DNA of 64,000 bases, from positions 64,001-128,000 of the forward strand of contig CAVPVX010000010.1 of assembly GCA_963709345.1 (NCBI GenBank), given 5' to 3'. The translations under genes were made by a program, and so were the position numbers. This document shows positions 45,442 through 62,918 of this stretch, piece after piece; the first letter of the stretch is position 1, and every line of letters begins with the position of its first letter. The notes under the pieces were generated by a model, which was not told the DNA's origin, searched no databases, and worked only from the letters and a program-made list of their open reading frames with translations. The stretch comes from an uncultured Actinomycetes bacterium (GTDB lineage: Bacteria > Actinomycetota > Thermoleophilia > UBA2241).

Positions 45442-46403
45442 CCCGAGGGCCGGCCGAGCCGCCGGAGGCGGTGGCGCCGGCCCCTGCGCGCGCCCGCGTG
45501 CCGGATCGCCGGCGCGCCCTCATCGCCGACGCGGCGCTGCTCAGCGTCGCCGTCATCTGGGGTCTCAACTTCGTCGTCATCAAGGACGCCATCGCCGACA
45601 CGGGCCCGATGACGTACCTGCTCTGGCGGCACATCCTGGCGGCGCTCATGCTCGCGGCGGTGATGCCGCGCGCGGTCGGGCAGATCGGCCGGCGCGACTG
45701 GCTCTACGGCTCCGTTCTCGGTGCCTGCCTCTTCGTCGCCTTCGCGGCGCAGACGATCGGGCTGCAGTGGACGACGCCGGGCAAGAGCGGTTTCATCACC
45801 AGTCTCTACATCGTCATGGTGCCGTTCCTGTATTGGATCGTGGCGCGCCGCTCGCCGGGCTGGCTGCAGGTGTCGGGCGCGGTTGTCGCGACGGCGGGTC
45901 TGGGGTTCCTGACCTTGCGCGGCGGTCTCGGCATGGGGCGCGGCGACCTGCTCACGCTGGTCGGCGCCGTCGGCTTCGCCGGGCAGATCGTGGCCACCGG
46001 GTTCTTCGCGCCGCGCACTCGTCCGGCGGTGCTGGCGCTGACGCAGATCGCCGCCGCGGCCGCGCTCTTCGTCGTCGTCACCCCGTTCGTCGAGCACGTG
46101 AGCGTGGACTTCGGCGCGAGGGCCTGGGCGGCCATCGTGTGGACGGCCGCCAGCGGCACCGTCTTCGGTTTCGTCGTGCAGGCCTGGGCGCAGAAGGCGA
46201 CGACCTCGACGCGCGCCGGGGTCATCCTCGGGCTCGAGGGCCTCTTCGCCGCCGTCTTCGGCCTGCTGTTCGGCTTCGACGCGCTCACCTGGCGCTTCGT
46301 CCTCGGAGCGGCGCTGATCGCCGCCGGCGTGATCGTCATCGAGGCCGCGCCCGGCCGGCGCGGCGAGCCGAACCCGGCCGATGTGCTCCCGCGGGCGGAC
46401 TGA
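45438..46403 (+). CDS. DMT/EamA family transporter
   Basis: IWGLNFVVIK, QTIGLQWTT, QAWAQK; about 10 TM segments. Confidence 0.9.
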   Translation: MTRGPAEPPEAVAPAPARARVPDRRRALIADAALLSVAVIWGLNFVVIKDAIADTGPMTYLLWRHILAALMLAAVMPRAVGQIGRRDWLYGSVLGACLFVAFAAQTIGLQWTTPGKSGFITSLYIVMVPFLYWIVARRSPGWLQVSGAVVATAGLGFLTLRGGLGMGRGDLLTLVGAVGFAGQIVATGFFAPRTRPAVLALTQIAAAAALFVVVTPFVEHVSVDFGARAWAAIVWTAASGTVFGFVVQAWAQKATTSTRAGVILGLEGLFAAVFGLLFGFDALTWRFVLGAALIAAGVIVIEAAPGRRGEPNPADVLPRAD

Positions 46404-46577
46404 CGACGAGTGGCCGCCGGTGCGGCCGGCGGCGGCAGTCGGCCGGCGAGACCCTGCCGGTGGCTCGGGCTTGATGGGCTTGAAGCGACCGAGCCTGAGT
46501 CGGCGGCGCACCAGACCGCCCCGGCGCCCGGCCTTCAGCGTCCCGTCACTCGCCGCGCTTCCGATAGGATCATCGTG

Positions 46578-47582
46578 ATGGCGACTCTCCCGAGCAGCAC
46601 GCACGCATCGCGCCGCAAGGCGCTCGTCGCCGACGTGCTGCTCTTCAGCGTCGCCATCTTCTGGGGCAGCAACTTCGTCTTCATCAAAGACGCCGTCGAG
46701 CGCACCACCGAGCTCGCCGCCGGGAGCATCGTCGCCGGCACGATGCTGTATCTGGTGCTGCGCTACGTGGTCGCGACCGGGATCTTCGCCGTGGCGCAGC
46801 CGCGCAGCTGGCTCCGGTCGACTCGCGGCGACTGGGCGCGGGGCGGCCTGCTCGGCGCCTTCTACCTGACCGCCCTCATCCTCCAGACCATCGGGTTGCA
46901 GCGCACGTCGCCCGGCGTCAGCGGGTTCATCACCGGGATGAGCGTCGCCATGGTCCCCTTCCTCTACTGGGCCGTTGCCCGCCGGTCGCCGGGCCGCTGG
47001 CAGATCATCGGCGCGATCATCGCCACCGTCGGGCTTGGGGCGCTCAGCCTGCAGGGCGACTTCTCGATCCGCTGGGGCGACGCGATCACCCTGCTCGGCA
47101 CGCTCTTCTACGCCTTGCACATCATGACCACCGGCTTCTTCGCGCCGAAGGTGAAGCCGACGACCTTGGCGATCACCCAGATGGCCGTCTCGACGGCGGT
47201 CCTCGTCGTCGTCACCCCGTTCGTGGTGCAGATCACCTTCGATCTGCCTTGGCAGGTGTGGGCGGCCGTGGTCTGGACTGCCGTCACCGGCACCATCTAT
47301 GCGTTCTTCATCCAGAGCTGGGCGCAGCGCTACACGACCTCGACGCACGCGGCGATCCTCCTCGGCTTCGAGAGCGTCTTCGCCGCCATCGCCGGCATCG
47401 CCGTCGGCATGGACTCCGTGACCTGGCGCTTGCTGGTCGGCGGCACGATGATGCTCAGCGGCGTCTTCATCGTCGAGTTGTTGCCCTCGTCAAAGGGGGT
47501 CGTCGACGAGATCGAGGCGGAAGAGGGGCCGGTCGGCGTGGACGGACCGGTGGACTCCGGCGGACCGTCCGGCGCGTCGTGA
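46578..47582 (+). CDS. DMT/EamA family transporter (tandem paralog)
   Basis: FWGSNFVFIK, QTIGLQRTS, QSWAQR; leaderless signature TAGGAT-7nt-ATG. Confidence 0.9.
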   Translation: MATLPSSTHASRRKALVADVLLFSVAIFWGSNFVFIKDAVERTTELAAGSIVAGTMLYLVLRYVVATGIFAVAQPRSWLRSTRGDWARGGLLGAFYLTALILQTIGLQRTSPGVSGFITGMSVAMVPFLYWAVARRSPGRWQIIGAIIATVGLGALSLQGDFSIRWGDAITLLGTLFYALHIMTTGFFAPKVKPTTLAITQMAVSTAVLVVVTPFVVQITFDLPWQVWAAVVWTAVTGTIYAFFIQSWAQRYTTSTHAAILLGFESVFAAIAGIAVGMDSVTWRLLVGGTMMLSGVFIVELLPSSKGVVDEIEAEEGPVGVDGPVDSGGPSGAS

Positions 47583-48310
47583 GCGGCCCGGCGCCCGGTG
47601 GCTACGAGGCGCTCGCGCTCACGCCGGCCGAGCGCGAGCAGATCGAGGAGCAGCTGAGCGCGTGCTTCGGGCTGACGCCCGCCGGCGCCCGCGCCTGGGT
47701 CGCCACATCGGCGCGCCGCGGCTGGTACTACGGCTGGAGGGTCGGGGAGCGGATCGCCGCCAGCGTCGCCTTCGAGCCGCTGGAGTTCAGGCGCGGAGGG
47801 CGCGCGGCGGGCGCCGCTCCGCTCCGCGCCCTCCTTCTGCAGAGCCACTACGTGCACCCCGACTTCCGCGGGCAGGGCTACCGCGTGCGTGAGGCGTTCC
47901 TCGACGAGGTGCTCGAGCGGCACGACGGCCGTACCATCGTGCTCTGTCTGTACGACGACGCGTTGGCTGGGTACTGGCGCGAGGCGGGGTTCGATCTGGA
48001 GCACGGGCGCGAGACCGTTACGACGGCGGCGGCGCTGGATCGCTGGGCCGCCGCGCTCTCGCCGGTGGTCTCCGCCGGCTACCTGGCCGCGAAGCGCGAG
48101 GAGGCCGAAGCCGACGGCGCCTCGGTCACCGAGGTGTGCGGGCTCATGCTGATCAGCGATCGTGGCTCGGCCGCCCACACGGAACTGCTGGTCACCGACC
48201 TCGAGCGCGCGCGTCTCGCGCCTCCGGCGCTGCTCGCGCAGCCGCTCGAGGTCACGACGATCATGAGCTATCCGGCGCGGCTCGGCCTCTTCTGCCCCGT
48301 GGTGGTCTGA
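47579..48310 (+). CDS. Putative GNAT-fold protein
   Basis: YVHPDFRGQG acetyl-CoA-binding-like motif and YWREAGF; GTGA overlap. Confidence 0.55.
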   Translation: MSGPAPGGYEALALTPAEREQIEEQLSACFGLTPAGARAWVATSARRGWYYGWRVGERIAASVAFEPLEFRRGGRAAGAAPLRALLLQSHYVHPDFRGQGYRVREAFLDEVLERHDGRTIVLCLYDDALAGYWREAGFDLEHGRETVTTAAALDRWAAALSPVVSAGYLAAKREEAEADGASVTEVCGLMLISDRGSAAHTELLVTDLERARLAPPALLAQPLEVTTIMSYPARLGLFCPVVV

Positions 48311-48334
48311 GCGGCGCGGGCTCCGTGGCGAGGC

Positions 48335-48623
48335 ATGAGCTCGTGATAGCGCGATGGGGTCACGTCCGAGCTCACAGACCGCCCGTTCGCCGACCTCCCG
48401 CCGACGGCGCGCCGCATCTTTGCCGCCGCGCAGACGATCGTGTCGGAGCGGCTACGCCGATCTCACCATGGCCGCGCTCGAGATGGAGTCGGGCGCCGAC
48501 CCGGCTTCCGGCGCCCGGCGTCCCGTCACGGCTGTTCGCGGCCGTCGTGTACCCGGTGCCGACGTGGGTCTGGGTGAAGCGCGCCGGCAAGGGCGGCTAC
48601 GTGCCCGCCGGAGGCTTTGCCTG
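48335..48623 (+). pseudogene. Degraded TetR-family N-terminal remnant joined to an unrelated membrane-protein-like tail
   Basis: ARRIFAAAQTIVSER, frameshift, then GYADLTMAALEMESG; two stops just after ATG 48335. Confidence 0.5.
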
Positions 48624-48762
48624 ACAAGCACGGTTTCTGCACGGCCGCCTCGCGGGCATAAGGTCGCAGGGGCCGCCTGAAGCGGATTCACGCTTTGTCC
48701 GGCATGGCCCGTACACCGCCGGGGCGAAGACCACGGCCGAGGCGAGGGATACATGGCTCGGG

Positions 48763-50034
48763 ATGAGTGATCAGTTGAAGCCGCGGGTCGCGCTTGACGG
48801 CCTTCTGATCGCCGCATCGTCGGTTGCTTATGCGCGCTTCACGCGAGGCGGTGCCCTGCACAGCGCGAACGCGTGCTTTCGCGACTTGATCGGGGAGGTC
48901 GGAGGAGACGTCCGGCTGGTCGATCTGGTCGTGGAGGGGCAGCGCGAGGCAGTCGAGCGTCTGCTGGACGGCGACGAGCTGCCCTCCGAGGCGCTCAACC
49001 TCCATCTTGCCGTCCGCGACCAGACGCCCACCACGTTGCTCGCGACGTGGGCGTGGGACGGGGACCATCTGGTCCTGCTCGGCGAGATCCCCTTCGCCGA
49101 CCTGGAGGCCGCCCAGGCCACGCTGGTCAAGCTCAACAACCGCGTCTCCGAACTGGCGCGCGAGAATGCGAAAAAGAGCGCTCAGCTCGAGCGCGCGCTC
49201 GACGACTTGCGTGAGACGCAGGCGATGCTCGTGCACCGCGAGAAGATGGCCGCGCTGGGCCAGATGACGGCCGGCGTAGCCCACGAGCTCAACAACCCGC
49301 TCGCCTACGTCAAGAACAACCAGTACCTGGTGCGTCAGGGGGTCCTGGATCTTCTCGAGCTGATCAATCTGTTCGGCGAGGGCCTCGATCCGATCGAGGA
49401 GGCGCAGCCCGAGCTGTTCGATGTGATCATGCAGCGGATCCAGGACGTCGACCTGCCGCGTCTCGGGGAGCGGCTGCCGCGGCTTCTCGAGTCTGTCGAC
49501 GAGGGGCTCGACCGGTCCGTCGGACTGGTCAAGGGCCTGCGCACGTTCTCGCGTCTCGACGAGGCCGAGGTCAAGAGCATCGACCTCAACGAGTCCTTGC
49601 GCTCGGTCGTCGAGTTCGCCGGCTTCCTGATGAAGGAGAACGACACGGAGTTCACTGCGAGCTACGGCGACCTGCCGGCGGTCGTGTGTGCCCCCGGCCA
49701 GCTGAACCAGGCGGTGCTGAACATCCTCACGAATGCCGTGCAGGCGGCCGGTCCCGGCGGGAGGGTGAGCCTGTCCACGGCGGTCGTCGGTGACGAAGCG
49801 CTCATCCGCGTGAGCGACAGCGGGCCCGGCGTGCCGGAGGAGCTCGCCGACCGCGTCTTCGACCCGTTCTTCACGACGCGTCCTGTTGGCGAAGGTACCG
49901 GTCTCGGGCTGAGCATCGCGCACACCGTGGTCGCCGAGCACGGCGGGCGCATCTCTCTTGAAGACGCGCCCGGCGGAGGCGCCGCCTTCACCATCCACCT
50001 GCCTCTCACGGAAGGAGCGCCGCGTGGTCGCTGA
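48763..50034 (+). CDS. Cytoplasmic sensor histidine kinase (degenerate PAS-like N-terminus)
   Basis: AHELNNP H-box, NILTNA, DSGPG, FDPFFTT, GTGLGL; no TM helix. Confidence 0.9.
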   Translation: MSDQLKPRVALDGLLIAASSVAYARFTRGGALHSANACFRDLIGEVGGDVRLVDLVVEGQREAVERLLDGDELPSEALNLHLAVRDQTPTTLLATWAWDGDHLVLLGEIPFADLEAAQATLVKLNNRVSELARENAKKSAQLERALDDLRETQAMLVHREKMAALGQMTAGVAHELNNPLAYVKNNQYLVRQGVLDLLELINLFGEGLDPIEEAQPELFDVIMQRIQDVDLPRLGERLPRLLESVDEGLDRSVGLVKGLRTFSRLDEAEVKSIDLNESLRSVVEFAGFLMKENDTEFTASYGDLPAVVCAPGQLNQAVLNILTNAVQAAGPGGRVSLSTAVVGDEALIRVSDSGPGVPEELADRVFDPFFTTRPVGEGTGLGLSIAHTVVAEHGGRISLEDAPGGGAAFTIHLPLTEGAPRGR

Positions 50035-51235
50035 GCCCATGAACCCGGCATTCGCCGCCAAGCTTGGGCGGCGCAAGACCGGCCGGCGAGCGGACGGCGC
50101 GCCAGAATCGGGTCCGGAGGCGACCGACAGGCGTGCTTGCGTGCTGGTCGTCGACGACGAGCCGGAGATCACTCGTTCGGTGGCTGAGTTGCTCGAGCGC
50201 GACTACCGTGTGCTCACGGCCAACTCCGCCGACGAGGCTCTCGGGCTGCTCGGGACGAATCCCGTCTCGGTGATCCTTACGGACCAGCGCATGCCCGGCG
50301 GCAGCGGGGCGGAGTTGCTCGCCCACTCGCTGGACATCGCCCCCGAGACGACGCGCATCCTGTTCACCGGCTACTCGGACATCAGCGCCGTGATCGAGGC
50401 GGTCAACGAGGGCCAAGTGTACCGGTACGTCACCAAGCCGTGGCGACCGGAAGAGCTGCTGGCGGTCGTGGACCAGGGTCTCGAGCGCTACAGTCTGGTG
50501 GTCGAGAACCGACGCCTGCTCGAGGAGCTCTCACAGGCCAACGCGGACCTGGAGATCGCCAATCGCAATCTCCAGCAGTTCGTCTACTCTATGTCGCATG
50601 ACCTGCGCTCGCCGCTGCGCGCTCTCGACGGTTTCAGCCTGGCCATTCTGGAAGACTACGCCGATTGTCTCGACGACACCGGGGCCGACTACCTGAAGCG
50701 CATCCGGGCCGCCAGCCAGCGGATGGCGGAACTGTTCGACGCTCAGCTGGCGCTGGCGCGAACGGGATACCGGGAGGTGGAGATCACCGACGTCGACGTC
50801 ACTGAGCTTGCGCGACGCCTGGTCGAGAGGCAGAAGAGCGCCGATGCGTCGCGCTCCGTCAAGTTCAGCGTCGCCGACGGCATGACCGCCCGCTCCGACG
50901 CGGTGGTGGCCGGGCTGGTGCTGGAGCGGCTCCTCGACAACGCCTGGAAGTTCACGTCCAAGCAGACTGAGGCGCACGTAAACGTAGGCTGCGAGGACAG
51001 GGACGGAGAGAACGCTTTCTTCGTGCGCGACGACGGCGTCGGCTTCGAAGATGCGTACGCGCACAAGCTCTTTGCGCCGTTCGAGCGGCTCCACACAGCG
51101 GAGGAGTTCGTCGGCACCGGTATCGGGCTGGCGAGCGTCCGTCGCCTTCTGGAGCGTGTCGGCGGGCGGTGTTGGGCGGAGGGCCGGCCCGGCGAAGGGG
51201 CGGTCGTGTGGTTCACTCTCGAGGGCGATGACTGA
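50024..51235 (+). CDS. Hybrid receiver-histidine kinase
   Basis: REC domain (VVDDE, TDQRMP, KPW), SHDLRSPL, LLDNAWKF, GTGIGL. Confidence 0.9.
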   Translation: MVAEPMNPAFAAKLGRRKTGRRADGAPESGPEATDRRACVLVVDDEPEITRSVAELLERDYRVLTANSADEALGLLGTNPVSVILTDQRMPGGSGAELLAHSLDIAPETTRILFTGYSDISAVIEAVNEGQVYRYVTKPWRPEELLAVVDQGLERYSLVVENRRLLEELSQANADLEIANRNLQQFVYSMSHDLRSPLRALDGFSLAILEDYADCLDDTGADYLKRIRAASQRMAELFDAQLALARTGYREVEITDVDVTELARRLVERQKSADASRSVKFSVADGMTARSDAVVAGLVLERLLDNAWKFTSKQTEAHVNVGCEDRDGENAFFVRDDGVGFEDAYAHKLFAPFERLHTAEEFVGTGIGLASVRRLLERVGGRCWAEGRPGEGAVVWFTLEGDD

Positions 51236-52395
51236 TGTCTGCCGCCGGCGCAACGACGCTCAACCCCGCCTTCGCCGCCAAGCTCGAGCAGCGCAGGGCA
51301 GAGCGGCGCCCGGATGGCCCGGCCGCGCGGCGTCCGGAGGCGTCCGACCGGCGCCCGTGCGTGCTGGTCGTCGACGACGAGCTTGAAATCACGCGTTCGG
51401 TGGCTGAGTTGCTCGAACGCGACTACGACGTGCTCACGGCCAATTCCGCCGACGAGGCGCTGACGTTGCTCGAGGACAATGAGGTCGCCGTGGTCCTCAC
51501 CGACCAGCGCATGCCCGGCGGCAGCGGCTCCGAGCTGCTCGCCCGCTCGCTGGACATCGCCCCCGAGACGACGCGCATCCTCTTCACCGGCTACTCGGAC
51601 ATCAGCGCCGTGATCGAGGCGGTCAACGAGGGCCAGGTGTACCGGTACGTCACCAAGCCGTGGCTGCCGGAGGAATTGCAGGGGGTGCTGCACCAAGGCC
51701 TCGAGCGCTACCGGCTCGTGGTCGAGAACCACCGTCTGCTCGAGGAGCTCACGACGGCGAACGAGGACCTGGAGCGCAGGGTCGAGGAGAGGACCAGCAA
51801 GCTGCGCGAGCAGAACGAGGCTCTCCGGCGCGCGCGCCAGCGCATCGAAGAGCTGTCACGACGAGACTCGCTCACGGGTCTCACCAACCGGCGCTGGCTG
51901 GACGAGGTATTCCGCGTCGAAGTGGAGCGCAGCAAGAGGTACGACGCGCCGCTCTCGGTGGTCATGGTCGATCTGGATCACTTCAAGGCGGTCAACGATT
52001 CGTTCGGCCACACGGTGGGTGACCAGGTCCTGAGGTCGGCGGCGGACGCGCTCGCGGGTGCGGCACGGATGACCGATGTGGTCGGCCGCTACGGGGGCGA
52101 GGAGTTCTTGGCGCTCCTCCCCAACACGCGTATCGAGCAGGCACGGGTGCTGGCCGAGCGCCTGCGCGCTGCGCTGCGCGAGATGCCCGTCGCCTTCCGC
52201 CCGGAGCCGGTGACGGCCAGCTTCGGCGTGGCTCAGTGGGCTCCGGGAGATTCACCGACTGACGTCGTCGACCGTGCCGACGAGGCTTTGTATGAAGCCA
52301 AGCACGCCGGCCGCGATCGCGTCGTCAGTCGCGACGCCGAGCGGGCCGGACGATCCGATCGTGAAGGCCGGGATGAGGGGAGCGACGATGGGTGA
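51235..52395 (+). CDS. REC-GGDEF diguanylate cyclase
   Basis: REC domain, coiled coil, DSLTGL, DHFKAVND, RYGGEEF. Confidence 0.92.
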   Translation: MSAAGATTLNPAFAAKLEQRRAERRPDGPAARRPEASDRRPCVLVVDDELEITRSVAELLERDYDVLTANSADEALTLLEDNEVAVVLTDQRMPGGSGSELLARSLDIAPETTRILFTGYSDISAVIEAVNEGQVYRYVTKPWLPEELQGVLHQGLERYRLVVENHRLLEELTTANEDLERRVEERTSKLREQNEALRRARQRIEELSRRDSLTGLTNRRWLDEVFRVEVERSKRYDAPLSVVMVDLDHFKAVNDSFGHTVGDQVLRSAADALAGAARMTDVVGRYGGEEFLALLPNTRIEQARVLAERLRAALREMPVAFRPEPVTASFGVAQWAPGDSPTDVVDRADEALYEAKHAGRDRVVSRDAERAGRSDREGRDEGSDDG

Positions 52396-52789
52396 CGTGA
52401 CACTGGACGATGTTCTCAGAGACAACCACGACGCGATACTCGCGGCCGCGCAGGCGCGCATGCGCGGCGACGAGACGATGGGCAAGGTGGCGGCGCAGCG
52501 GGAACTCACCGAGAGTGATCTCTCGAGCCAGGTACTCGGCTTCTGGCTGCAGGGCATCCGCAGCGACGTGACGCTCGGGTCTACGGTGACCATGGCTCAG
52601 AATCTCCAGTGGCTGTCACACCTGCGCAGCGGGCACGAGCTGCCCTTCGACGACCAGATGGTCCAGGGGATGTTCGACGACATCTCCGAAGAGATCGAGG
52701 CGCATCTCGACTCCGCTGAGCTGCGCAGGGAGTGGGAGACGTACAGGGCACAGGTCGCGTGCCTCATCGGCGACGCCTTTCCCCAGTGA
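52388..52789 (+). CDS. Hypothetical all-helical protein, possibly globin-like
   Basis: Overlaps the upstream stop, has an RBS and normal codon bias; fold is a guess. Confidence 0.6.
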   Translation: MGDVTLDDVLRDNHDAILAAAQARMRGDETMGKVAAQRELTESDLSSQVLGFWLQGIRSDVTLGSTVTMAQNLQWLSHLRSGHELPFDDQMVQGMFDDISEEIEAHLDSAELRREWETYRAQVACLIGDAFPQ

Positions 52790-52802
52790 TCGGAGGCCGG
52801 GA

Positions 52803-53435
52803 ATGAAACTCCAGGAGTACGTGGACCACCTGCTCGCCGGTGAGGACGACGCCTGTGTGGCTGAGGGCAAGCAGCGTGCCGGCGACCTCGACGGCCTGCA
52901 CGCGCTGTACGTCGAGGTCATCCAGCCGTCGCAGTATCGTGTCGGCGAGCTCTGGGAGAGCGGTCGCATCTCGGTCGCGGCCGAGCACCTCGCCACGGCC
53001 ACCAACAGCTTTGTTGCCAGCACCTGCTACGCGCCGCTGGCGCGGGCGACGAGCGGCGGCCCCAAGGCATTCGTCGCTTGCACACCCGAGGAGATGCACG
53101 AGCTCGGCGCGCGGCTGTTCGCCGACCTGCTTGAGTGCGACGGCTGGGACGTCGACTTCTACGGGACGTCCATGCCCGTGCGCGACCTGATCGGCGCCAT
53201 CCGGGAGCGCAAGCCGCGCTTCGTCGGGCTCTCGGCTGCACTGGTGATGCACCTCGGGAGCGTCAAGCGCACCATCACGGCCATCCGTGACGCGCTCGGC
53301 GTCGAGACGCCGCCGATCGTCGTCGGCGGCAATGCCTTCAGCGCCGACCCCGACCTGTGGAAGCAGGTGGGCGCCGACCTCTACGCGGCCGACGCCTCGA
53401 CCGCGGTCGAGATGCTGCGTGGCCTCAAGGAGTGA
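52803..53435 (+). CDS. Stand-alone cobalamin-binding domain protein (CarH/AerR-like, no HTH)
   Basis: W-x9-EH motif (WESGRISVAAEH), EMHELG, VGLSA, VVGG. Confidence 0.88.
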   Translation: MKLQEYVDHLLAGEDDACVAEGKQRAGDLDGLHALYVEVIQPSQYRVGELWESGRISVAAEHLATATNSFVASTCYAPLARATSGGPKAFVACTPEEMHELGARLFADLLECDGWDVDFYGTSMPVRDLIGAIRERKPRFVGLSAALVMHLGSVKRTITAIRDALGVETPPIVVGGNAFSADPDLWKQVGADLYAADASTAVEMLRGLKE

Positions 53436-53467
53436 TCGGTCGGCTGCCGGGTGGGTCCGGCGACCCG

Positions 53468-54820
53468 CTACCGCGCCAGCTCCACACGATTTCGGCCGCC
53501 CTCCTTGGCGCGGTAGAGGGCCTCGTCCGCCAGCTTGATGAGGCCGTCCTCCTGTGCGACGTTCTGGCTCGGATAGGCGGCCCCGCCGCCGCTGAGCGTG
53601 ACGCGCACGGTCTTCTCGCCGTCGGCGACGGAACTGTCTTCGACGGCCTTGCGCAGCCGCTCGCCCATGTGCCGCAGATCCGCGGTGGATGCCGCCGGCA
53701 TCACCGCGAGGAGCTCCTCACCGCCGTAGCGCAGGAGCACGTCTCCCTCACGCAGTGATGAACGGACGATCGCGCACACCGATTTGAGGACCCTGTCGCC
53801 GACGAGGTGCCCGTAGGTGTCGTTCACGACCTTGAAGTGGTCGATGTCGAGCATGAGCACGCCGAGGGGGGAGGTCATGCGCACGGCGCGGCCGAACTCC
53901 TCGTGCAGCCTCCCCAGGCCGAAGCGCCGGTTGTAGATGCCCGTGAGCGGGTCGAGGGCGGCGAGATTCTGCAGGCGGTCGTGGGCGATGGCGTTGTTGA
54001 GCGCCAGTCCGAAACCCTGGATGAAGAGGTCGATGAGGTCGCTCTGATCGGCGGTGAAGGCACGTGGGCCGGCGAGCACGACGACGCCGAGCGGAACGCT
54101 CTTGTACCTGACGGGGTGGACGCGTACCTCGGCCGGGCGGAAGTCCGCGACGACGCCCTCGAGGAGCACATCCTCGGGGATCATGATCGTCTGGGAGCGG
54201 CCGCTGCGCACGGCGTCGTCGACGTGGCCACTCGCCGCGACTGCTGCCGCGTCGCGCAGCCCGCGCGAGGCGGCCACGTTCAGCTCGCCGGCCGCCTCGT
54301 AGAGGATCAATCCTCCGGCAGCCCCGGTGTGTTCGAAGAACTGGCGAAGCGCCTCTTCGGCCAGCGTCTCGATCTCCAGCTGGCTGGTCATCATCTCCGA
54401 GAAGGCACGCACCGCTCCCTGGGTCCTCATCGACGCCGACAGGGCCTCCACGAGCCGGTTGAAGGCAAGCGCGCTCTCGCCGATCTCGTCCTCGGAGTCG
54501 ACGACGATCTCGCAGGCCTCAGGCGTGCAGGCGGACACGTCTCCGCTCGAAGTCATGCCTTCCAGGCTCTGCTCCACGTGGGTCATGCGTTCGGCCAGGG
54601 TTCGCAGACGCTTGCCGACGACGCGGCGCGAGATGGCGTAGTTCACGACGCCGGCCAAGGCTCCGGCGAAGAGGCACGCGGCGAAGAACAGCGGCGTCAG
54701 CGCGGTCTCCTGCGGCACCCCGAGCAGCATGACGAAGAAGGGGAACGCAAGCCCGATGCAGAGGCCGAAGCCGATCTGCCAGATTGCGAGGTCGTGGAAG
54801 ACCTTGCGAGTGATGCGCAT
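53468..54820 (-). CDS. Membrane diguanylate cyclase (2 TM, HAMP, GAF, GGDEF)
   Basis: DEIG HAMP motif, DPLTG, I-site-like REGD, RYGGEEL; ends in TAG. Confidence 0.88.
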   Translation of the reverse strand: MRITRKVFHDLAIWQIGFGLCIGLAFPFFVMLLGVPQETALTPLFFAACLFAGALAGVVNYAISRRVVGKRLRTLAERMTHVEQSLEGMTSSGDVSACTPEACEIVVDSEDEIGESALAFNRLVEALSASMRTQGAVRAFSEMMTSQLEIETLAEEALRQFFEHTGAAGGLILYEAAGELNVAASRGLRDAAAVAASGHVDDAVRSGRSQTIMIPEDVLLEGVVADFRPAEVRVHPVRYKSVPLGVVVLAGPRAFTADQSDLIDLFIQGFGLALNNAIAHDRLQNLAALDPLTGIYNRRFGLGRLHEEFGRAVRMTSPLGVLMLDIDHFKVVNDTYGHLVGDRVLKSVCAIVRSSLREGDVLLRYGGEELLAVMPAASTADLRHMGERLRKAVEDSSVADGEKTVRVTLSGGGAAYPSQNVAQEDGLIKLADEALYRAKEGGRNRVELAR

Positions 54821-55016
54821 CGGGCGCCTCCCAGGTTGCGGCCGCGGTCACGTGCACTGTACCCACGCCGCCGCGCGGTATTCCACGTCGTGATGACGGC
54901 GACAGGGCCGGCGATACGGCCCCTCATCATTCTCCGGGGCCGGCCTGCTATCCTTGCGGCGGGCGGGGCCCGGAGGGCCGCTCCCGCCCCACGCGCCGTC
55001 GTCAACGGGAGACCAC

Positions 55017-56252
55017 ATGCCCGACCAGCCATACGAAGACGTCCAGATCGAGGGCCACCTCATCGACTCTCTCATGATGCCGCAGACGATGGACGAGATC
55101 ATGGACCTCGAGGGCGAGTACGAGGTACTGACCTTCGACGTTGGGCGCGTGAAGGATGACCCGTCTCACGCCGTGCTGCGGATCTTCGGCCGCGACGCCG
55201 CTCACCTGGACGAGCTGCTCAGGGCGGTCACGAAGTTCGGCATGTGCGCCTTGCAGCCCCACGATGCCGTGCTCGAGGCCGCCGACATCGACGGCGTCTT
55301 CCCCGACACCTTCTATTCCACCACCAACCTCGACACCTTCGTCCGCGTGGCCGGAGACTGGGTGCGGGTGCAGCATCCCGAGATGGACTGCGGCATCCGC
55401 GTGGACGAGGCGGCCGGCGCGGCCGAGACGGTGGTGATGAGCGACGTGCGGGCCGGCGACCGCTTCGTCACCGGCCATCGCGGCATCCGCGTGCTGCCGC
55501 TGGCGCGGCCACGTGAGAGCCAGCCGTTCGAGTTCATGGCCTCGGCGGTCAGCAGCGAGAAGCCCAAGGCGCAGATCGTCCACGAGGTCGCGCACATCCT
55601 CCGGCAGGTCAAGGAGGAGGGGCGGCTCACCATAGCCGTGGTCGGGCCGGCGGTCGTGCACACGGGGGCGGCGCCGAGCCTCGCCCGCCTCATCGAGGCG
55701 GGCTACATCGGCGCGGTCTTCGGCGGGAATGCCGTGGCCACCCACGACGTCGAGTCGAGCCTGTTCGGCACCTCCCTGGGCATCAACCTCAAGGAGGGGA
55801 CGCCGGTGCCCGGCGGCCACGAGCACCACCTGCGCGCCATCAACACCATCCGGCGCGCCGGGAGCATACGGGCCGCCGTCGACCAGGGCATCCTGACCGG
55901 CGGCCTCATGTACACGCTCACGAAGACCGGCACGCCCTTCGTCCTCGCGGGGAGCATCCGCGACGACGGCCCGATGCCCGAGGTGGTCACCGACGTCATG
56001 CAGGCGCAGCACGAGATGCGGCGCTACGCGCAGCAGGCCGGCGCCTGCCTCATGCTGAGCACGATGCTGCACAGCATAGCCGTAGGCAACATGCTGCCGG
56101 CCAGCGTGCGCACCGTCTGCGCCGACATCAACCCCGCGGTCGTGACGAAGCTGGCCGACCGTGGTTCCTTCCAGGCCATCGGCATCGTCACCGATGTCGG
56201 CCTGTTCGTGGAGCAACTCGCCGACGAGCTGGACGGCGCCGGCGGCCGATGA
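55017..56252 (+). CDS. TIGR00300 family protein (AgrE/ArgZ C-terminal-like, probable ornithine cyclodeaminase)
   Basis: GHLIDS, FYSTTN, EMDC, FEFMASAVSSEKP, GNAVATHD, LAGSIRDDGP, TKLADRG. Confidence 0.85.
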   Translation: MPDQPYEDVQIEGHLIDSLMMPQTMDEIMDLEGEYEVLTFDVGRVKDDPSHAVLRIFGRDAAHLDELLRAVTKFGMCALQPHDAVLEAADIDGVFPDTFYSTTNLDTFVRVAGDWVRVQHPEMDCGIRVDEAAGAAETVVMSDVRAGDRFVTGHRGIRVLPLARPRESQPFEFMASAVSSEKPKAQIVHEVAHILRQVKEEGRLTIAVVGPAVVHTGAAPSLARLIEAGYIGAVFGGNAVATHDVESSLFGTSLGINLKEGTPVPGGHEHHLRAINTIRRAGSIRAAVDQGILTGGLMYTLTKTGTPFVLAGSIRDDGPMPEVVTDVMQAQHEMRRYAQQAGACLMLSTMLHSIAVGNMLPASVRTVCADINPAVVTKLADRGSFQAIGIVTDVGLFVEQLADELDGAGGR

Positions 56253-56741: not shown

Positions 56742-57164
56742 TCAGGGCAGCTCAGGCAAGCCATCCTCGCCGATGGTCCAGAAGGGGTTGAAGGCGACTT
56801 CCCAGGCGTGGCCGTCCGGATCCGCGAAGTACCCGGAGTAGCCACCCCAGAACCGGTCCCGGGCCGGCCGCAGCAGCGTCTCGCCGGCCCGTGCCGCCTC
56901 GTCCAGACACTCGTCGACGAGCTCGCGGCTCTCGACGTTCATCGCCAGGGTCGCACGGATGGAGCCGGGAGCCGCCGCCGGCTGCCCGGCCTCATCGGCG
57001 AGGCCCTCAAGCGCGTCGAGCGCCAGCCGCGACCCGGCGGTGCGGAAGAAGGCGACCTGGTCCTCCGGCTCGCCGCTGAGCGGCCAGCCGAGCGCCCGGT
57101 AGAAGGCTCGCGCTCTGGGTACGTCTGCAACGCCCAGAGTGATCACGCTGATCCGTGCCCGCAT
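56742..57164 (-). CDS. VOC/glyoxalase family protein
   Basis: ITLGVADV..ARAFY and FWGGYSGYFADPDGHAWE. Confidence 0.9.
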   Translation of the reverse strand: MRARISVITLGVADVPRARAFYRALGWPLSGEPEDQVAFFRTAGSRLALDALEGLADEAGQPAAAPGSIRATLAMNVESRELVDECLDEAARAGETLLRPARDRFWGGYSGYFADPDGHAWEVAFNPFWTIGEDGLPELP

Positions 57165-57334
57165 GGCTCTCGCTCCTTGTTCGCACGGTCGGGCGGCGAG
57201 ACCGGCCGCCACCACCCGACCGTCTGTCCAACCGTACTCCGCGATTTCCCCCATCCGACAGGCGTCGTGGCCGGCCTCGTGGATATACTCCAAGTGATGC
57301 ACTTCCACAGTCCGCGACCTCATCGAGGGACACT

Positions 57335-58546
57335 ATGAAGCCACGTCTCATCCGCGACAACGTCCATCTCATCGGCAGCGTCGATTGGGACCGCCGCCTC
57401 TTCGATGCGCTCATTCCGCTGCCCGACGGCACCAGCTACAACTCGTACTTCGTCGTCGGCAGCGAGAAGAACGCGCTGATCGACACCGTCGACCCGGCCA
57501 AGTGGCCGGAGCTCTCCGCCCAGCTCGACGAGCTGCCGGCGCCGGACTACCTCGTGATCCATCACGTCGAGCAGGACCACTCGGGCTCGACGCCGATGCT
57601 CCTCGAGCGCTTCCCGGACCTCACGATCGTCTGCAACCAGAAGGCGAAGGGCATGCTCATCGACCACCTGCACGTGGACGACGCCCGCTTCCACGTGGTC
57701 GCCGACGGCGACGAGCTCTCGCTCGGCGACAAGACGCTGAAGTTCCTGTTCACGCCGTGGGTCCACTGGCCCGAGACGATGAGCACGTGGCTGGCCGAGA
57801 GCAAGATGCTCTTCAGCTGCGACTTCTTCGGCTCGCACTACGCCACCAGCGACGTCTTTGCCGACAAGCACGAGGTGTACGACGGCGCCAAGCGCTACTA
57901 CGCCGAGATCATGATGCCGTTCGGCGCCCAGGTGCTCAAGAACATCGACAAGGTCACGCAGTATCCCATCGAGATCGTCGCGCCGAGCCACGGCCCCGTG
58001 TACGACGACCCCGGCTTCATCATCGAGGCGTACCGCGACTGGGCGGGCGGAGAGCCGCAGAACATCGTCTGCCTCCCGTACGTGACCATGCACGACAGCA
58101 CGCGGCTGATGGTGGACCATCTCACGGCCGCGCTCACCGATCGCAGCGTCTCCGTAGAGCGCTTCGACCTCACCACGCTCGATGCCGGCGAGCTCGCCAG
58201 CTCGCTGGTCCACGCCGGCACCATCGTGATCGGCACGCCGACGGTGCTCACCGGGCCGCACCCGCTGGCGATGTACGCGGCCGCGCTGGCGAACGCCCTG
58301 CGGCCGCGCGCCAAGTTCGCGACGGTGGTCGGCTCGTACGGCTGGGCCGGCAAGACCGTCGAGACGCTGGTGGGGATGATGCCCAAGCTCAAGCTCGAGT
58401 ACCTCGAGCCGGTACTCGCCAAGGGCATGCCTCGGGCTGGGGACTACGCGCGCCTCGACGCGCTCGCGGACACCATTGCCGAGAAGCACAAGGACTTGGC
58501 GCCGCGTAACTTCGCCGACCTCACCGTTTGTCGCACCGACTTCTGA
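57335..58546 (+). CDS. fprA: Flavodiiron protein (A-type flavoprotein)
   Basis: GTSYNSY, HVEQDHSG, VHWPE, CDFFG, PSHG, flavodoxin motif GSYGW. Confidence 0.92.
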   Translation: MKPRLIRDNVHLIGSVDWDRRLFDALIPLPDGTSYNSYFVVGSEKNALIDTVDPAKWPELSAQLDELPAPDYLVIHHVEQDHSGSTPMLLERFPDLTIVCNQKAKGMLIDHLHVDDARFHVVADGDELSLGDKTLKFLFTPWVHWPETMSTWLAESKMLFSCDFFGSHYATSDVFADKHEVYDGAKRYYAEIMMPFGAQVLKNIDKVTQYPIEIVAPSHGPVYDDPGFIIEAYRDWAGGEPQNIVCLPYVTMHDSTRLMVDHLTAALTDRSVSVERFDLTTLDAGELASSLVHAGTIVIGTPTVLTGPHPLAMYAAALANALRPRAKFATVVGSYGWAGKTVETLVGMMPKLKLEYLEPVLAKGMPRAGDYARLDALADTIAEKHKDLAPRNFADLTVCRTDF

Positions 58547-60308: not shown

Positions 60309-61334
60309 TCAGTACTGGGCCTCGTGACCGACCTCGATCATGGCCCGGATGTTTTCGATCGGAGTATGGAGGCTCAGATCGCAGCCACTCGCGAGCACGA
60401 AGCCCCCACCCGCCCAGCCCTTCGACACGCACGACCTGGCCGCTTCCCTCACCGTCTCGGGAGAGCCGTCGAGAAGGAGCCCAACGGGATCCACGTTACC
60501 GAGCAGGCAGACGGAGGCGCCGATGGCCTCCTTCACGACGGCCGTATCCACCGACGCGTCGAAGCTGAAAGCCGTCGCACCCGTGTCCGCTGCGAGCGTG
60601 AGGATCTTGGCGGTCTTGCCACACACGTGCAGGATCGACGGCAAGTCCACCTTCTGGAGCGCCTCGACGACAGTCCTCGTGGACGGAGCTGCGTACTCCG
60701 CGTAGTGTCGTGGAGATATCAGGTCGCCGGACGCGGTGGGGTCGCTGAGGACGAACCCGTGGACCCCGAGGTCCGCGTACAGCTGCAGATGCCGCACGAT
60801 GACCTCGGTCGAGAACTCGATCAAGCGGTGGACCTCGTCGGCGTGTTCGATCAGATCCGTCATCAGGTCGGTCATCCCGCGCAGGTGACCCGCCAGCGTG
60901 AAGGGCAGAGGGAGCGAGGCGTAGCAGAACACTTCATCGCCAAGCTCCTCCAGGAGCGCCTCGGCAGCGATCAGAGACGACTGCACGCGGGAGCTTGCGC
61001 TCGTGTCCACGAGGACGAGGTCCGCCACCTCATCAAGTGAATGAAGCGCAGGCTCGATGACACTGGGGCTCCCAACCTCGGTGATCCGGGAAGTGCAGCC
61101 AAGCAGGTCGACGAAGGCGAACCAATCCCAGACGATCTCGATCGCGTCAAAGGGACAGGCTGCCTGTGCATTGACGATGGCTGCGGCTGCCCTCTCAGGA
61201 TGAGCCAACGACTCGGGGGTCGACAAGCCGAAGGCGTCGAGAGCCCAGTAGCCTTGGAAGGGAGGCGCGACGGGCACCCTGTCGGGCGGGTCGAGCAGTC
61301 GAAGAGCCTTGGTGAACCTCTCCCTCCCGGTCAT
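60309..61334 (-). CDS. UroD-superfamily MtaA/CmuA-like methylcobamide methyltransferase
   Basis: DRVPV, PFTLA, SDPTASGDLISP, Zn ligands LHVCG and SGCD, TPIENI. Confidence 0.8.
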   Translation of the reverse strand: MTGRERFTKALRLLDPPDRVPVAPPFQGYWALDAFGLSTPESLAHPERAAAAIVNAQAACPFDAIEIVWDWFAFVDLLGCTSRITEVGSPSVIEPALHSLDEVADLVLVDTSASSRVQSSLIAAEALLEELGDEVFCYASLPLPFTLAGHLRGMTDLMTDLIEHADEVHRLIEFSTEVIVRHLQLYADLGVHGFVLSDPTASGDLISPRHYAEYAAPSTRTVVEALQKVDLPSILHVCGKTAKILTLAADTGATAFSFDASVDTAVVKEAIGASVCLLGNVDPVGLLLDGSPETVREAARSCVSKGWAGGGFVLASGCDLSLHTPIENIRAMIEVGHEAQY

Positions 61335-61925
61335 CTGCGTCCCTTCTGCGTCTGAGGCTTCATCGGGCGTCCTCTCCGCAGCTGCGGCATGAACGAGGCG
61401 CCCCGCGTGCGGTGCCCGTTCGCCGAGACCTCGCTGCGGACGATGGCGAGTGCAGTGTATCCGTACGTACTCGGCCTTGGCGGTGGCACCCCGCGCCGTC
61501 CTCGACCGCGAGTTCGACGCGCCGTGCGAGTGGAACATCCAGGCGCGTGCACTCGTCTCCCTGGGGCGTACAAGGGTCTGTGGACGAGCGCGACCACTGG
61601 CCGGGCGTTCCGCAGCGAGTGTCGGCCGTCGGTGACTACGTGGGTGCGGGCCCAAGCGCTCTCGCGTGCGTCCAACGCTCGGCGGGCGAGATGCTGAGTG
61701 GCAACGCGCGCGACGATTCCCCCGAGGTCACCGCACCTCTCGCGGCTCCCGGCATGCGACTGTGGGATGACGCAAGTGCTGTGACGATTGTGGGAGCCCG
61801 CGGCGCCGGCGCCGCGTTCGGCGGCGTGTGTCGAGCGATCTCACTCCGCACGCACGGCACTTGCTCTTGCACAGCAGGATGACTCATAGTCGCAAGACGC
61901 TGCGACGAGGAGGATCGAACGTGAC

Positions 61926-62918
61926 ATGCCCGACTCCCCCACCCGACGAGAGGAGGCTCCAGTGAGGGGCTACGGGCCCGCAGACCCATCGGCGACGCCG
62001 CGCTTCGCGGGGATCTCCACGTTCCTGCGTTTGCCGCACACGACGAACCTCGAGGGCGTGGATGTGGCGGCGGTGGGCTTGCCGTTCGACACCGGCGTGT
62101 CGTTTCGCGTGGGAGCACGATTCGGGCCAAAAGCCATCCGGGACGGCTCTCTGGCGTTTCGCCCGGACTTCAACCCGGAGCAGGGCGTCTCGGTGTTCGA
62201 ACGGCTCTCGGTGATCGACTATGGCGACGCCCCGATCGTGCCCGGCGCGACAGTAGCATCGCTCGACAAGATGTCCGGGTCGTTGGGCGTGCTGCATGAA
62301 GCGGGCGTGATACCGATTGGCTTCGGTGGAGATCACAGCGTGCTGCTCGCGGAGCTGCGGGCAGCCGCCGCGACGCGCGGTCCGCTTGCAGTCATCCAGT
62401 TCGACGCTCACTGCGATACTCGTGATGACTACTTCGGCGAGAAGTACACCCACGGTACAGTCCTGCGTCGCGCCTGCGAGGAGGGACTCGTCGACGCGTC
62501 CCGCTCGACTCTGATGGGCATGCGGGGCGGGCTCGCCGGACCGAATGACCATGAAGAGGCTCGTGCCCTGGGCTTCCATGTCGTGCGCTGGACCGAACTG
62601 GCCAGTCTCGGCGTGGGCGCGGTCAAGACGGCTGTCGAACGTGCTCGCGGCAAGGCTTTCCTCACGTTCGACATCGACTTCATCGACCCGGCGTACGCTC
62701 CGGGCACGGGCACCCCCGTGTGTGGTGGCCCGTCGTCGATGCAGGCGCTGGAGTTGCTGCGGGCGTGTCGCGGCCTGCATATCATCGGTGCGGATGTCGT
62801 CGAGGTGGTGCCCGACCTCGACAGCTCCTATCTCACGGCGATGCTTGCGGCGACGGTCGCGTGGGAGATCCTCAGTCTCATCGCCGTGAGTACGGTGATG
62901 ACTGCGGGAAGCCACTAG
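61926..62918 (+). CDS. speB: Agmatinase / ureohydrolase
   Basis: GARFGP, GGDHS, DAHCD, TFDIDFIDP, APGTGTP; ends in TAG. Confidence 0.88.
   Translation: MPDSPTRREEAPVRGYGPADPSATPRFAGISTFLRLPHTTNLEGVDVAAVGLPFDTGVSFRVGARFGPKAIRDGSLAFRPDFNPEQGVSVFERLSVIDYGDAPIVPGATVASLDKMSGSLGVLHEAGVIPIGFGGDHSVLLAELRAAAATRGPLAVIQFDAHCDTRDDYFGEKYTHGTVLRRACEEGLVDASRSTLMGMRGGLAGPNDHEEARALGFHVVRWTELASLGVGAVKTAVERARGKAFLTFDIDFIDPAYAPGTGTPVCGGPSSMQALELLRACRGLHIIGADVVEVVPDLDSSYLTAMLAATVAWEILSLIAVSTVMTAGSH

Follow-up and report, generated by a model that had tools for sequence, protein, structure and literature searches.

A putative split photocobilin-type sensor module tied to a PAS kinase and c-di-GMP output in an uncultured actinomycete

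Background

How a cobalamin-binding sensor without an output domain of its own could pass a signal to a histidine kinase is the question raised by a gene cluster in the genome of an uncultured actinomycete of the class Thermoleophilia (assembly GCA_963709345.1). The cluster lies in a 64,000-nucleotide stretch of contig CAVPVX010000010.1, referred to here as the window, and comprises five genes on the + strand, A to E, and a convergent gene F on the - strand (Table 1). A first-pass annotation, made from the sequence letters, had described five tightly packed genes for a soluble histidine kinase, a kinase with a receiver (REC) domain, a REC-GGDEF protein, a small helical protein and a B12-binding protein, with a second GGDEF gene converging on them; all are present, and F ends 32 nt from E. 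It had further suggested that the B12 protein and its helical partner form a detached input module for the kinase, reporting light, redox or whether its cobalamin carries a methyl or an adenosyl group. The present analysis points, with moderate confidence, to a split photocobilin-type light sensor based on adenosylcobalamin (AdoCbl), which would act through a dedicated PAS domain on the kinase to control cyclic di-GMP (c-di-GMP).

B12 photoreceptors are well understood only as CarH transcription factors and, since 2024, as one cyclase fusion, and the passage of signals from the many stand-alone B12/globin modules to kinases is the question that this locus addresses. In the available text of their survey of 5975 genes, Schneider et al. 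(2021) defined the photoglobin as a phycocyanin-like non-heme globin, almost always fused to or located beside B12-binding_2/B12-binding domains; the operons concerned abound in histidine kinases, receivers and GGDEF/EAL enzymes, and some of them carry several kinases (PMC8717448). The loci reported there are all computational, and according to the authors no experimental work had been done on any of them. Zhang et al. (2024) solved the structures of the photocobilins SasPcob and AbPcob (PDB 8J2W, 8J2X and 8J2Y), and reported a more than 10-fold activation of the diguanylate cyclase fused in AbDPcob through AdoCbl photochemistry, photocobilin domains in isolation likewise acting on the cyclase in trans (PMC10979010). 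This kind of system is already in print, and the first-pass statement that no characterised system has this layout needs correction: the operon class was published in 2021 (PMC8717448) and a photocobilin-cyclase was characterised biochemically in 2024 (PMC10979010).

Results and discussion

A predicted cobalamin-binding protein of the CarH type

According to Pfam, the 210 residues of E hold only two B12 domains, a four-helix bundle (PF02607, B12-binding_2; 7.5e-10, residues 4-67) and a Rossmann-type B12-binding domain (PF02310; 8.6e-19, residues 88-201), and neither a MerR DNA-binding domain nor any other output domain. The absence of an N-terminal MerR-type DNA-binding domain rules E out as a CarH repressor proper. 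The W-x9-EH and ExH motifs noticed at first pass are readable as W51-x9-E61-H62 and E97-M-H99-E-L-G102, and W51, E61, H62, E97, H99 and G102 are invariant across 45 family members which are 57-91% identical to E. The best sequence matches in the PDB are photocobilins (8J2X/8J2W 1e-19, 8JBS 1e-17, 8J2Y 1e-15), below which stand two corrinoid proteins, CarH (4e-9) and methionine synthase (1e-7), and the nearest relatives of E among 401 genomes of the phylum are likewise photocobilin-type proteins. Moreover, three of the four elements given as the signature of light-responsive B12 domains in the available text of PMC11796333 (GxxW, EH, GxxH and GxxxP) are present in E, as G48-E-L-W51, E61-H62 and G121-T-S-M-P125.

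The other corrinoid proteins of the same organism provide the contrast. The host genome (3.11 Mb, 98% complete) has 24 PF02310 matches; of 12 such loci examined, ten have a BLASTP match to E, one being E itself. DxHxxG is found in all nine paralogues and the EH pair in none, and one of the nine is the gene near 23.9 kb of the window that the first-pass annotation had set against E as a methyltransferase-type corrinoid protein. Judged by its sequence, and in line with the first-pass proposal, E is a CarH-type B12 module and not one of the methyltransferase type. The accompanying remark that such motifs normally control transcription is too narrow, given the photocobilin that is fused to a diguanylate cyclase (PMC10979010). 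Supply of the cofactor is indicated by one CobA/BtuR-type corrinoid adenosyltransferase encoded in the genome (C11:46509-47018); a PduO-type enzyme was not found in the 98% complete assembly.

These results bear on a reading in which light has no part and E reports cobalamin availability, or the upper-ligand or redox state of the cofactor, to c-di-GMP. In a corrinoid-rich methylotroph it is conceivable that E senses corrinoid status in the dark, and the 24 B12-binding matches in 3.1 Mb speak for it. AerR/PpaA-type proteins use the same fold for ligand-state sensing. On the other hand, Wx9EH is the adenosyl signature of light-responsive domains and is absent from the nine methyltransferase corrinoid proteins examined, and the closest relatives of E, both in the PDB and in the phylum, are of the photocobilin type. 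Furthermore, MeCbl, OHCbl and CNCbl (methyl-, hydroxo- and cyanocobalamin) were no substitute for AdoCbl photochemistry in the one system tested (PMC10979010), and the operon has neither a cobalamin riboswitch nor a gene of B12 metabolism linked to it, an Rfam scan of positions 46000-56000 returning no riboswitch and only a sub-threshold mir-15 chance match. A purely dark sensor is, in our judgement, quite improbable. Among the three signals proposed at first pass, light is the best supported, and nothing specific was found for the methyl versus adenosyl state.

Two further observations concern the corrinoid proteins of the genome. Five open reading frames (ORFs) of the own-genome set (L009-L013 within L007-L015) are identical in both motif regions (...GDLHDIG...), which suggests a recently expanded family of methyltransferase corrinoid proteins. 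A second B12-binding protein, L017 (C7:223111-223665 of the own genome, G000), has an open frame of 252 aa and is 32% identical to E. Where E reads W-x9-EH it reads W-x9-LY, its lower-ligand motif is DHHTLG, and it is intermediate between the sensor and methyltransferase types.

Conserved pairing of D and E

Neighbourhood conservation, one of the checks proposed at first pass, was found for the pair formed by D and E: D stands directly upstream of E in all seven loci compared, namely the window, five loci from actinomycete metagenome-assembled genomes (L001-L005) and one in genome G399 (L051). The two are also found as a single 352-aa protein, P0243, in which a D-like globin (32% identical) precedes an E-like B12 domain (63% identical). 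In addition, canonical stand-alone photoglobin ORFs, recognised by the hidden Markov model (HMM) of N-terminal-type photoglobins with E-values of 7e-24 and 1e-26, lie directly upstream of stand-alone E-like genes in two other genomes (L024 in G312 and L026 in G342), so that split pairs exist with both canonical and D-type globins. The coupling of a globin to a CarH-type B12 domain, by which photocobilins are recognised, is encountered here in split form, as gene adjacency and as the P0243 fusion. On this comparative evidence, D and E very likely constitute one detached input module.

Gene F does not share this linkage. Of the six related loci, only L001 has an F-like fragment, at a distance of about 2.3 kb from E, and F was rejected as a part of the module since it is not conserved with D-E; it is probably a neighbour and not a member. 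In a separate locus, the position directly downstream of D-E is taken by a 1030-aa ORF (L005:7155-10247, + strand) with a CheB methylesterase domain, a CheR methyltransferase domain and two PAS domains.

A globin-fold partner remote from canonical photoglobins

Conventional family searches leave D without an assignment. No Pfam or NCBIfam family matches it at E<=0.01, Pfam at E<=10 gave scattered single matches in 20 members of the D family (e.g. Protoglobin at 0.062 in one of the 20), phmmer and two profile searches against PDB sequences returned SlmA-type noise or nothing, and the 69 close homologues are all unannotated. The family is also rare, being found in two of the 401 genomes of the phylum, the own genome included, where it is single-copy.

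The fold was approached through an AlphaFold2 (AF2) model built on 39 homologues (pLDDT 90). VIA-align places the bilin domain of ApcE first (Z 13.7), followed by allophycocyanins down to Z 12.7, with photocobilin 8j2w_B residues 225-345 at Z 12.2 (rank 7 of 48,161 chains) and 8j2y_B at Z 10.2, values of 12-13 being reachable by helical models through their common arrangement. In Foldseek, phycobiliproteins are on top, with TM-scores of 0.6-0.73 and E-values of 0.02 or weaker, none reaching E<=1e-3. It is safe to say that the modelled fold of D is that of a globin; the choice of subfamily exceeds what structure alone can decide.

RsbR-type stressosome globins (2BNL, 3ZTA), which are small sensor globins serving as input domains, were considered as one such subfamily. 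They resemble the D model at Z 12.0-12.8, and one protein-atlas neighbour cluster (score 0.89) has RsbRD_N in 54% of its members, which is a lead only. Unlike D, RsbR globins come fused to STAS domains and have no B12-binding gene linked to them. The assignment was rejected because D has no STAS partner and no RsbRD_N match (none at E<=10 in 20 D-family members), and has a B12-gene context.

Relationship to photoglobins was assessed by profile comparison, with canonical photoglobin domains taken from E-like proteins in the 401 genomes and with two non-globin rows (L047, L048) left out of the N-terminal-type (N-type) group. Canonical N-type and C-terminal-type (C-type) domains recognise each other in hhalign with E 5e-13 and a probability of 98%. 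The corresponding results do not establish D as a photoglobin by sequence: against the N-type the D family gives a full-length collinear alignment (137 columns) with E 0.003-0.009 and a probability of 4-11% (best E 0.0028, 11%), and against the C-type E 0.4; canonical photoglobin HMMs with default filters retrieve no D-family ORF at E<=1, and D-family profile searches against the PDB return nothing at E<=10. RsbR-type non-heme globins, moreover, score structurally as high as the photocobilins (3zta Z 12.8, 2bnl Z 12.0), and the arrangement common to helical models lowers the weight of such values. With the --max setting, the N-type HMM gives many weak matches in a consistent register, the best at E 6e-4 among 104 D-family sequences and D of the window at 4.7. 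As far as sequence comparison goes, D would be related to photoglobins remotely, a relationship that is unproven; its gene context says that it is one.

Whether the putative pocket of D holds a pigment is a separate matter. Among the 69 members, D60 is invariant (69/69), W75 is found in 67 and D44 in 59, and V49 is nearly invariant. With SasPcob numbering set through its homologue L034 (E 9e-86), W75 aligns in both weak alignments with Trp296, the residue that packs the bilin D ring in SasPcob, while Asp270, the Asp of the CxxD motif, falls on D44 in one weak alignment and on V49 in the best, non-significant one. D60 is on the same helix, further along than the bilin-Asp position.

The features just described invite a two-chromophore sensor, in which D, as in SasPcob, would also bind biliverdin or another linear tetrapyrrole, and green (B12) and red/far-red (bilin) signals would be integrated before kinase A. 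The best structural matches of D are bilin-binding globins (ApcE, the allophycocyanins and 8j2w), D60 and D44 are both located on the long helix that corresponds to the bilin-binding one, W75 aligns, if weakly, with the ring-packing Trp, and bilin binding has been predicted or shown for this class of domain (PMC8717448, PMC10979010). Against these stand the uncertain place of the CxxD Asp, on V49 or on the non-invariant D44, the lack of a Cys at the covalent-attachment position of D, and the absence of the canonical heme oxygenase PF01126 from the 98% complete genome, where control genomes were matched and only a weak ABM-domain match appeared (C1:290442-290717). Lacking the Asp, AbPcob is a poor binder of biliverdin and yet works through B12 (PMC10979010). 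On balance we consider a second chromophore in D rather unlikely.

A PAS domain of kinase A as candidate entry point

The N-terminal part of A (residues ~1-110) has a PAS fold which Pfam does not detect, here called PAS_A; it is followed by a signalling helix (~112-165) and by the HisKA (H174) and HATPase_c domains. The AF2 model of residues 1-140 has a pLDDT of 85, and Foldseek returned 62 PDB matches at E<=1e-3, with the PAS domain of FixL first (8e-6) and, among those matches listed, largely PAS-domain proteins. H174 and the N- and G-box residues are invariant in 29 homologues.

The link between this domain and the D/E pair is provided by natural fusions. A D-profile scan of 1.84 billion representative proteins retrieved 36 proteins, four of which are longer than a stand-alone globin, and all four contain PAS_A: P0096 and P0097 are PAS_A-linker-globin proteins, P0070 has PAS_A followed by a kinase core that shares 44% identity with the core of B and then the globin, and P0075 is a transmembrane-GGDEF-EAL-PAS_A-globin protein. 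Conversely, the search with the PAS region of A gave 35 proteins, of which 33 are kinases and two are PAS_A-GGDEF proteins (P0132, P0136). Synteny agrees with the fusions: a PAS_A-bearing gene is present in all four related loci having upstream DNA. One of these, L002, is a three-gene minimal set of a PAS_A ORF, D and E amid unrelated metabolic genes and with no GGDEF gene; there PAS_A resides on a 257-aa PAS_A-coil ORF with no recognisable kinase domain. Fusions and synteny constitute Rosetta-stone evidence for a joint function of PAS_A, D and E, the fusions pointing to the PAS domain of A as the likely place of signal entry, and the tie of a putative D/E module to kinase A through its N-terminal PAS domain is accordingly supported by comparative data. 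With the 7/7 adjacency and the P0243 fusion, this favours the idea of a detached input module for the kinase put forward at first pass. A complex prediction for PAS_A (A 1-135), D and E, in which PAS_A was the scored partner, gave 0.00 against a mark of 0.32, and argues neither for nor against binding.

The possibility that the fusions are gene-calling artefacts was rejected, the linkers of P0096 and P0097 being different. The linker of P0096, a metagenomic protein of 338 aa, contains a CxxC...CxxC stretch, possibly a zinc ribbon, which P0097 lacks. P0208 may be a frameshift product, its likeness to D ending at residue 92.

The same data help to judge an arrangement in which D/E would bind C (or B) itself, in the way that AbDGC is bound by the isolated photocobilin domain, with the kinases forming a separate input. 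In the light state, photocobilin domains raise the activity of an isolated diguanylate cyclase in trans (PMC10979010), globin-B12-GGDEF fusions (L025, L027, L029) are among the closest relatives of E outside its own family, and C directly precedes D and overlaps it by 8 nt. The domain repeatedly found fused to the D globin, however, is PAS_A and not GGDEF, the minimal locus L002 keeps PAS_A, D and E without a GGDEF gene, and the complete receiver domain on C points to control by phosphorylation. Direct action on the enzyme appears improbable.

Duplicated receivers and predicted c-di-GMP output

The kinase and receiver Pfam matches of A, B and C are all above cut-off, the H-box His and the N, G1 and G2 motifs are readable in A and B, and DD...D...K is present in the receivers of both B and C. 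C matches GGDEF at 5e-45 and REC at 1e-17 in Pfam, and the NCBIfam PleD family at 1e-60, which is under the cut-off of that model; its motifs RMTD-VVGRY-GGEEF comprise the active site with an RxxD I-site five residues upstream. The convergent gene F matches GGDEF at 7e-42 and, weakly and below cut-off, GAF_2 at 0.0019, with the motifs REGD-VLLRY-GGEEL (RxxD I-site present).

A C-like REC-GGDEF gene is found upstream of D-E in five of the six related loci (six of seven with the window), and an extra REC protein stands between C and D in L003, L005 and L051. Residues 1-172 of B (REC and linker) are 80% identical to those of C by BLASTP, and no B-type REC-kinase occurs in the six related loci; B appears to have arisen when a recently duplicated C receiver was joined to a kinase core. 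The 80% identity of the two receivers fits one shared upstream kinase, A, and suggests that B and C could both be fed by A, with B as a further branch or a sink.

Proposed mechanism and points against it

In the mechanism that we infer, D and E would form a two-gene photocobilin-type photoreceptor. E would bind AdoCbl base-off/His-on through His99, with Trp51 and Glu61-His62 forming the adenosyl pocket, and D would dock on E like the globin domain in fused photocobilins. Green or near-UV light would break the Co-C bond and shift the conformation or oligomeric state of D/E, a change that the N-terminal PAS domain of soluble kinase A would read in trans, altering autophosphorylation. A would then hand phosphate to the two near-identical receivers, on B and on C; activation of the C receiver would change c-di-GMP synthesis, and B, a lineage-specific REC-kinase, would act as a second branch or as a phosphate sink.

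Besides the remote sequence relationship of D and the conceivable dark role discussed above, several points count against this proposal. The GxxH element of the light-responsive signature is unmatched in E, which has Glu96 three residues before His99. The phosphotransfer partners are deduced from gene order only. The operon is not delimited by any above-chance promoter or terminator signal, the scan having yielded no promoter-like and three terminator-like sites against 1.9 expected, a result that is uninformative in a genome of such high G+C (~68% in the region). Finally, the literature search, which left most subscription journals outside, found no experiment on the D/E family or on any split form and, in the titles and abstract openings listed, no laboratory work on a separate globin and B12 protein operating with a kinase.

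A more specific version concerns the role of D and is offered tentatively, with a modest chance of being correct. D would be a bilin-free descendant of photoglobins that has lost the pigment Asp and serves as a protein adaptor, capping the corrin of E and presenting the light-dependent state of D/E to PAS_A, which would in turn be a portable 'photoglobin receptor' that can be carried by kinases or GGDEF enzymes, stand by itself or be joined to the globin. If true, it would give the first defined docking interface for a B12 photoreceptor controlling a histidine kinase in trans. The locus also bears on whether a photoglobin-like partner works without bilin.

The locus offers a compact, all-soluble test system of six parts: E, D, the PAS-kinase A, two near-identical receivers and the cyclase. 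If it is light-gated, a non-phototrophic, corrinoid-dependent soil actinobacterium would tune c-di-GMP to light, and the parts could possibly provide a green-light-to-c-di-GMP or green-light-to-kinase tool.

Comparison with known systems

The closest counterparts are the photocobilins SasPcob and AbDPcob, which share with the locus a CarH-type AdoCbl domain with Wx9EH and E/DxH (the best PDB matches of E), a phycobiliprotein-like globin partner (D at Z 12.2 and 10.2 to theirs) and a diguanylate cyclase output, the photocobilin domain being able to act in trans (PMC10979010). The locus differs in that a gene each encodes the globin and the B12 domain and that the cyclase would be reached via a PAS-kinase and receivers instead of by fusion. 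Moreover, D lacks significant sequence likeness to the photocobilin globin, the equivalent of Asp270 is uncertain, and the genome has no heme oxygenase match.

The photoglobin-B12 operons likewise feature a stand-alone globin gene directly beside a B12 gene, amid kinases, receivers and GGDEF enzymes; the available text of that survey does not describe the particular PAS domain found here in fusion with the globin (PMC8717448). The CarH/LitR repressors (5C8A, 5C8D) have the same cobalamin-binding architecture, with the W, the E-H pair and the lower-ligand His. They differ from E in possessing a MerR domain and match it less well (4e-9) than photocobilins do, and the output proposed here is a phosphorelay and c-di-GMP, not direct repression. 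Particular to this locus are a globin subfamily unseen by canonical photoglobin profiles, a possibly pigment-free pocket and a portable PAS partner domain.

Gene organisation and neighbourhood

Of the five genes on the + strand, A and B are 4 nt apart, B and C overlap by 1 nt, C and D overlap by 8 nt, and 13 nt lie between D and E. The starts of B and D given in Table 1 lie downstream of the longest-ORF starts and were chosen from homologue alignments. A to E are predicted to be soluble, having no 19-residue window with a Kyte-Doolittle mean >= 1.6; F has hydrophobic windows of the same length at residues 11-46.

Table 1. Features of the region, with positions numbered from the first letter of the window; domains are Pfam matches unless stated otherwise
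Feature	Coordinates	Strand	Length	Description
Gene A	48763-50034	+	423 aa	Predicted soluble histidine kinase; HisKA + HATPase_c
Gene B	50039-51235	+	398 aa	Predicted hybrid kinase; Response_reg + HisKA + HATPase_c
Gene C	51235-52395	+	386 aa	Predicted response regulator / diguanylate cyclase; Response_reg + GGDEF
Gene D	52388-52789	+	133 aa	Predicted stand-alone globin-fold protein, photoglobin-like; no Pfam family
Gene E	52803-53435	+	210 aa	Predicted stand-alone CarH-type cobalamin-binding protein; B12-binding_2 + B12-binding
Gene F	53468-54820	-	450 aa	Predicted membrane-anchored GAF-GGDEF protein
Direct DNA repeat	50042-50341 (copy 1); 51262-51561 (copy 2)	+	300 nt	81% nt identity (repeat search); marks the duplicated receiver domain

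Beyond F, four neighbouring genes were noted, none of which is kept beside D-E in related loci: an ArgZ-like arginine dihydrolase (54954-56252, +), an ODP-family protein with a metallo-beta-lactamase fold (57155-58546, +), a URO-D-family protein (60309-61655, -) and an arginase-family protein (61926-62918, +). The URO-D family also contains methylcobamide methyltransferases.

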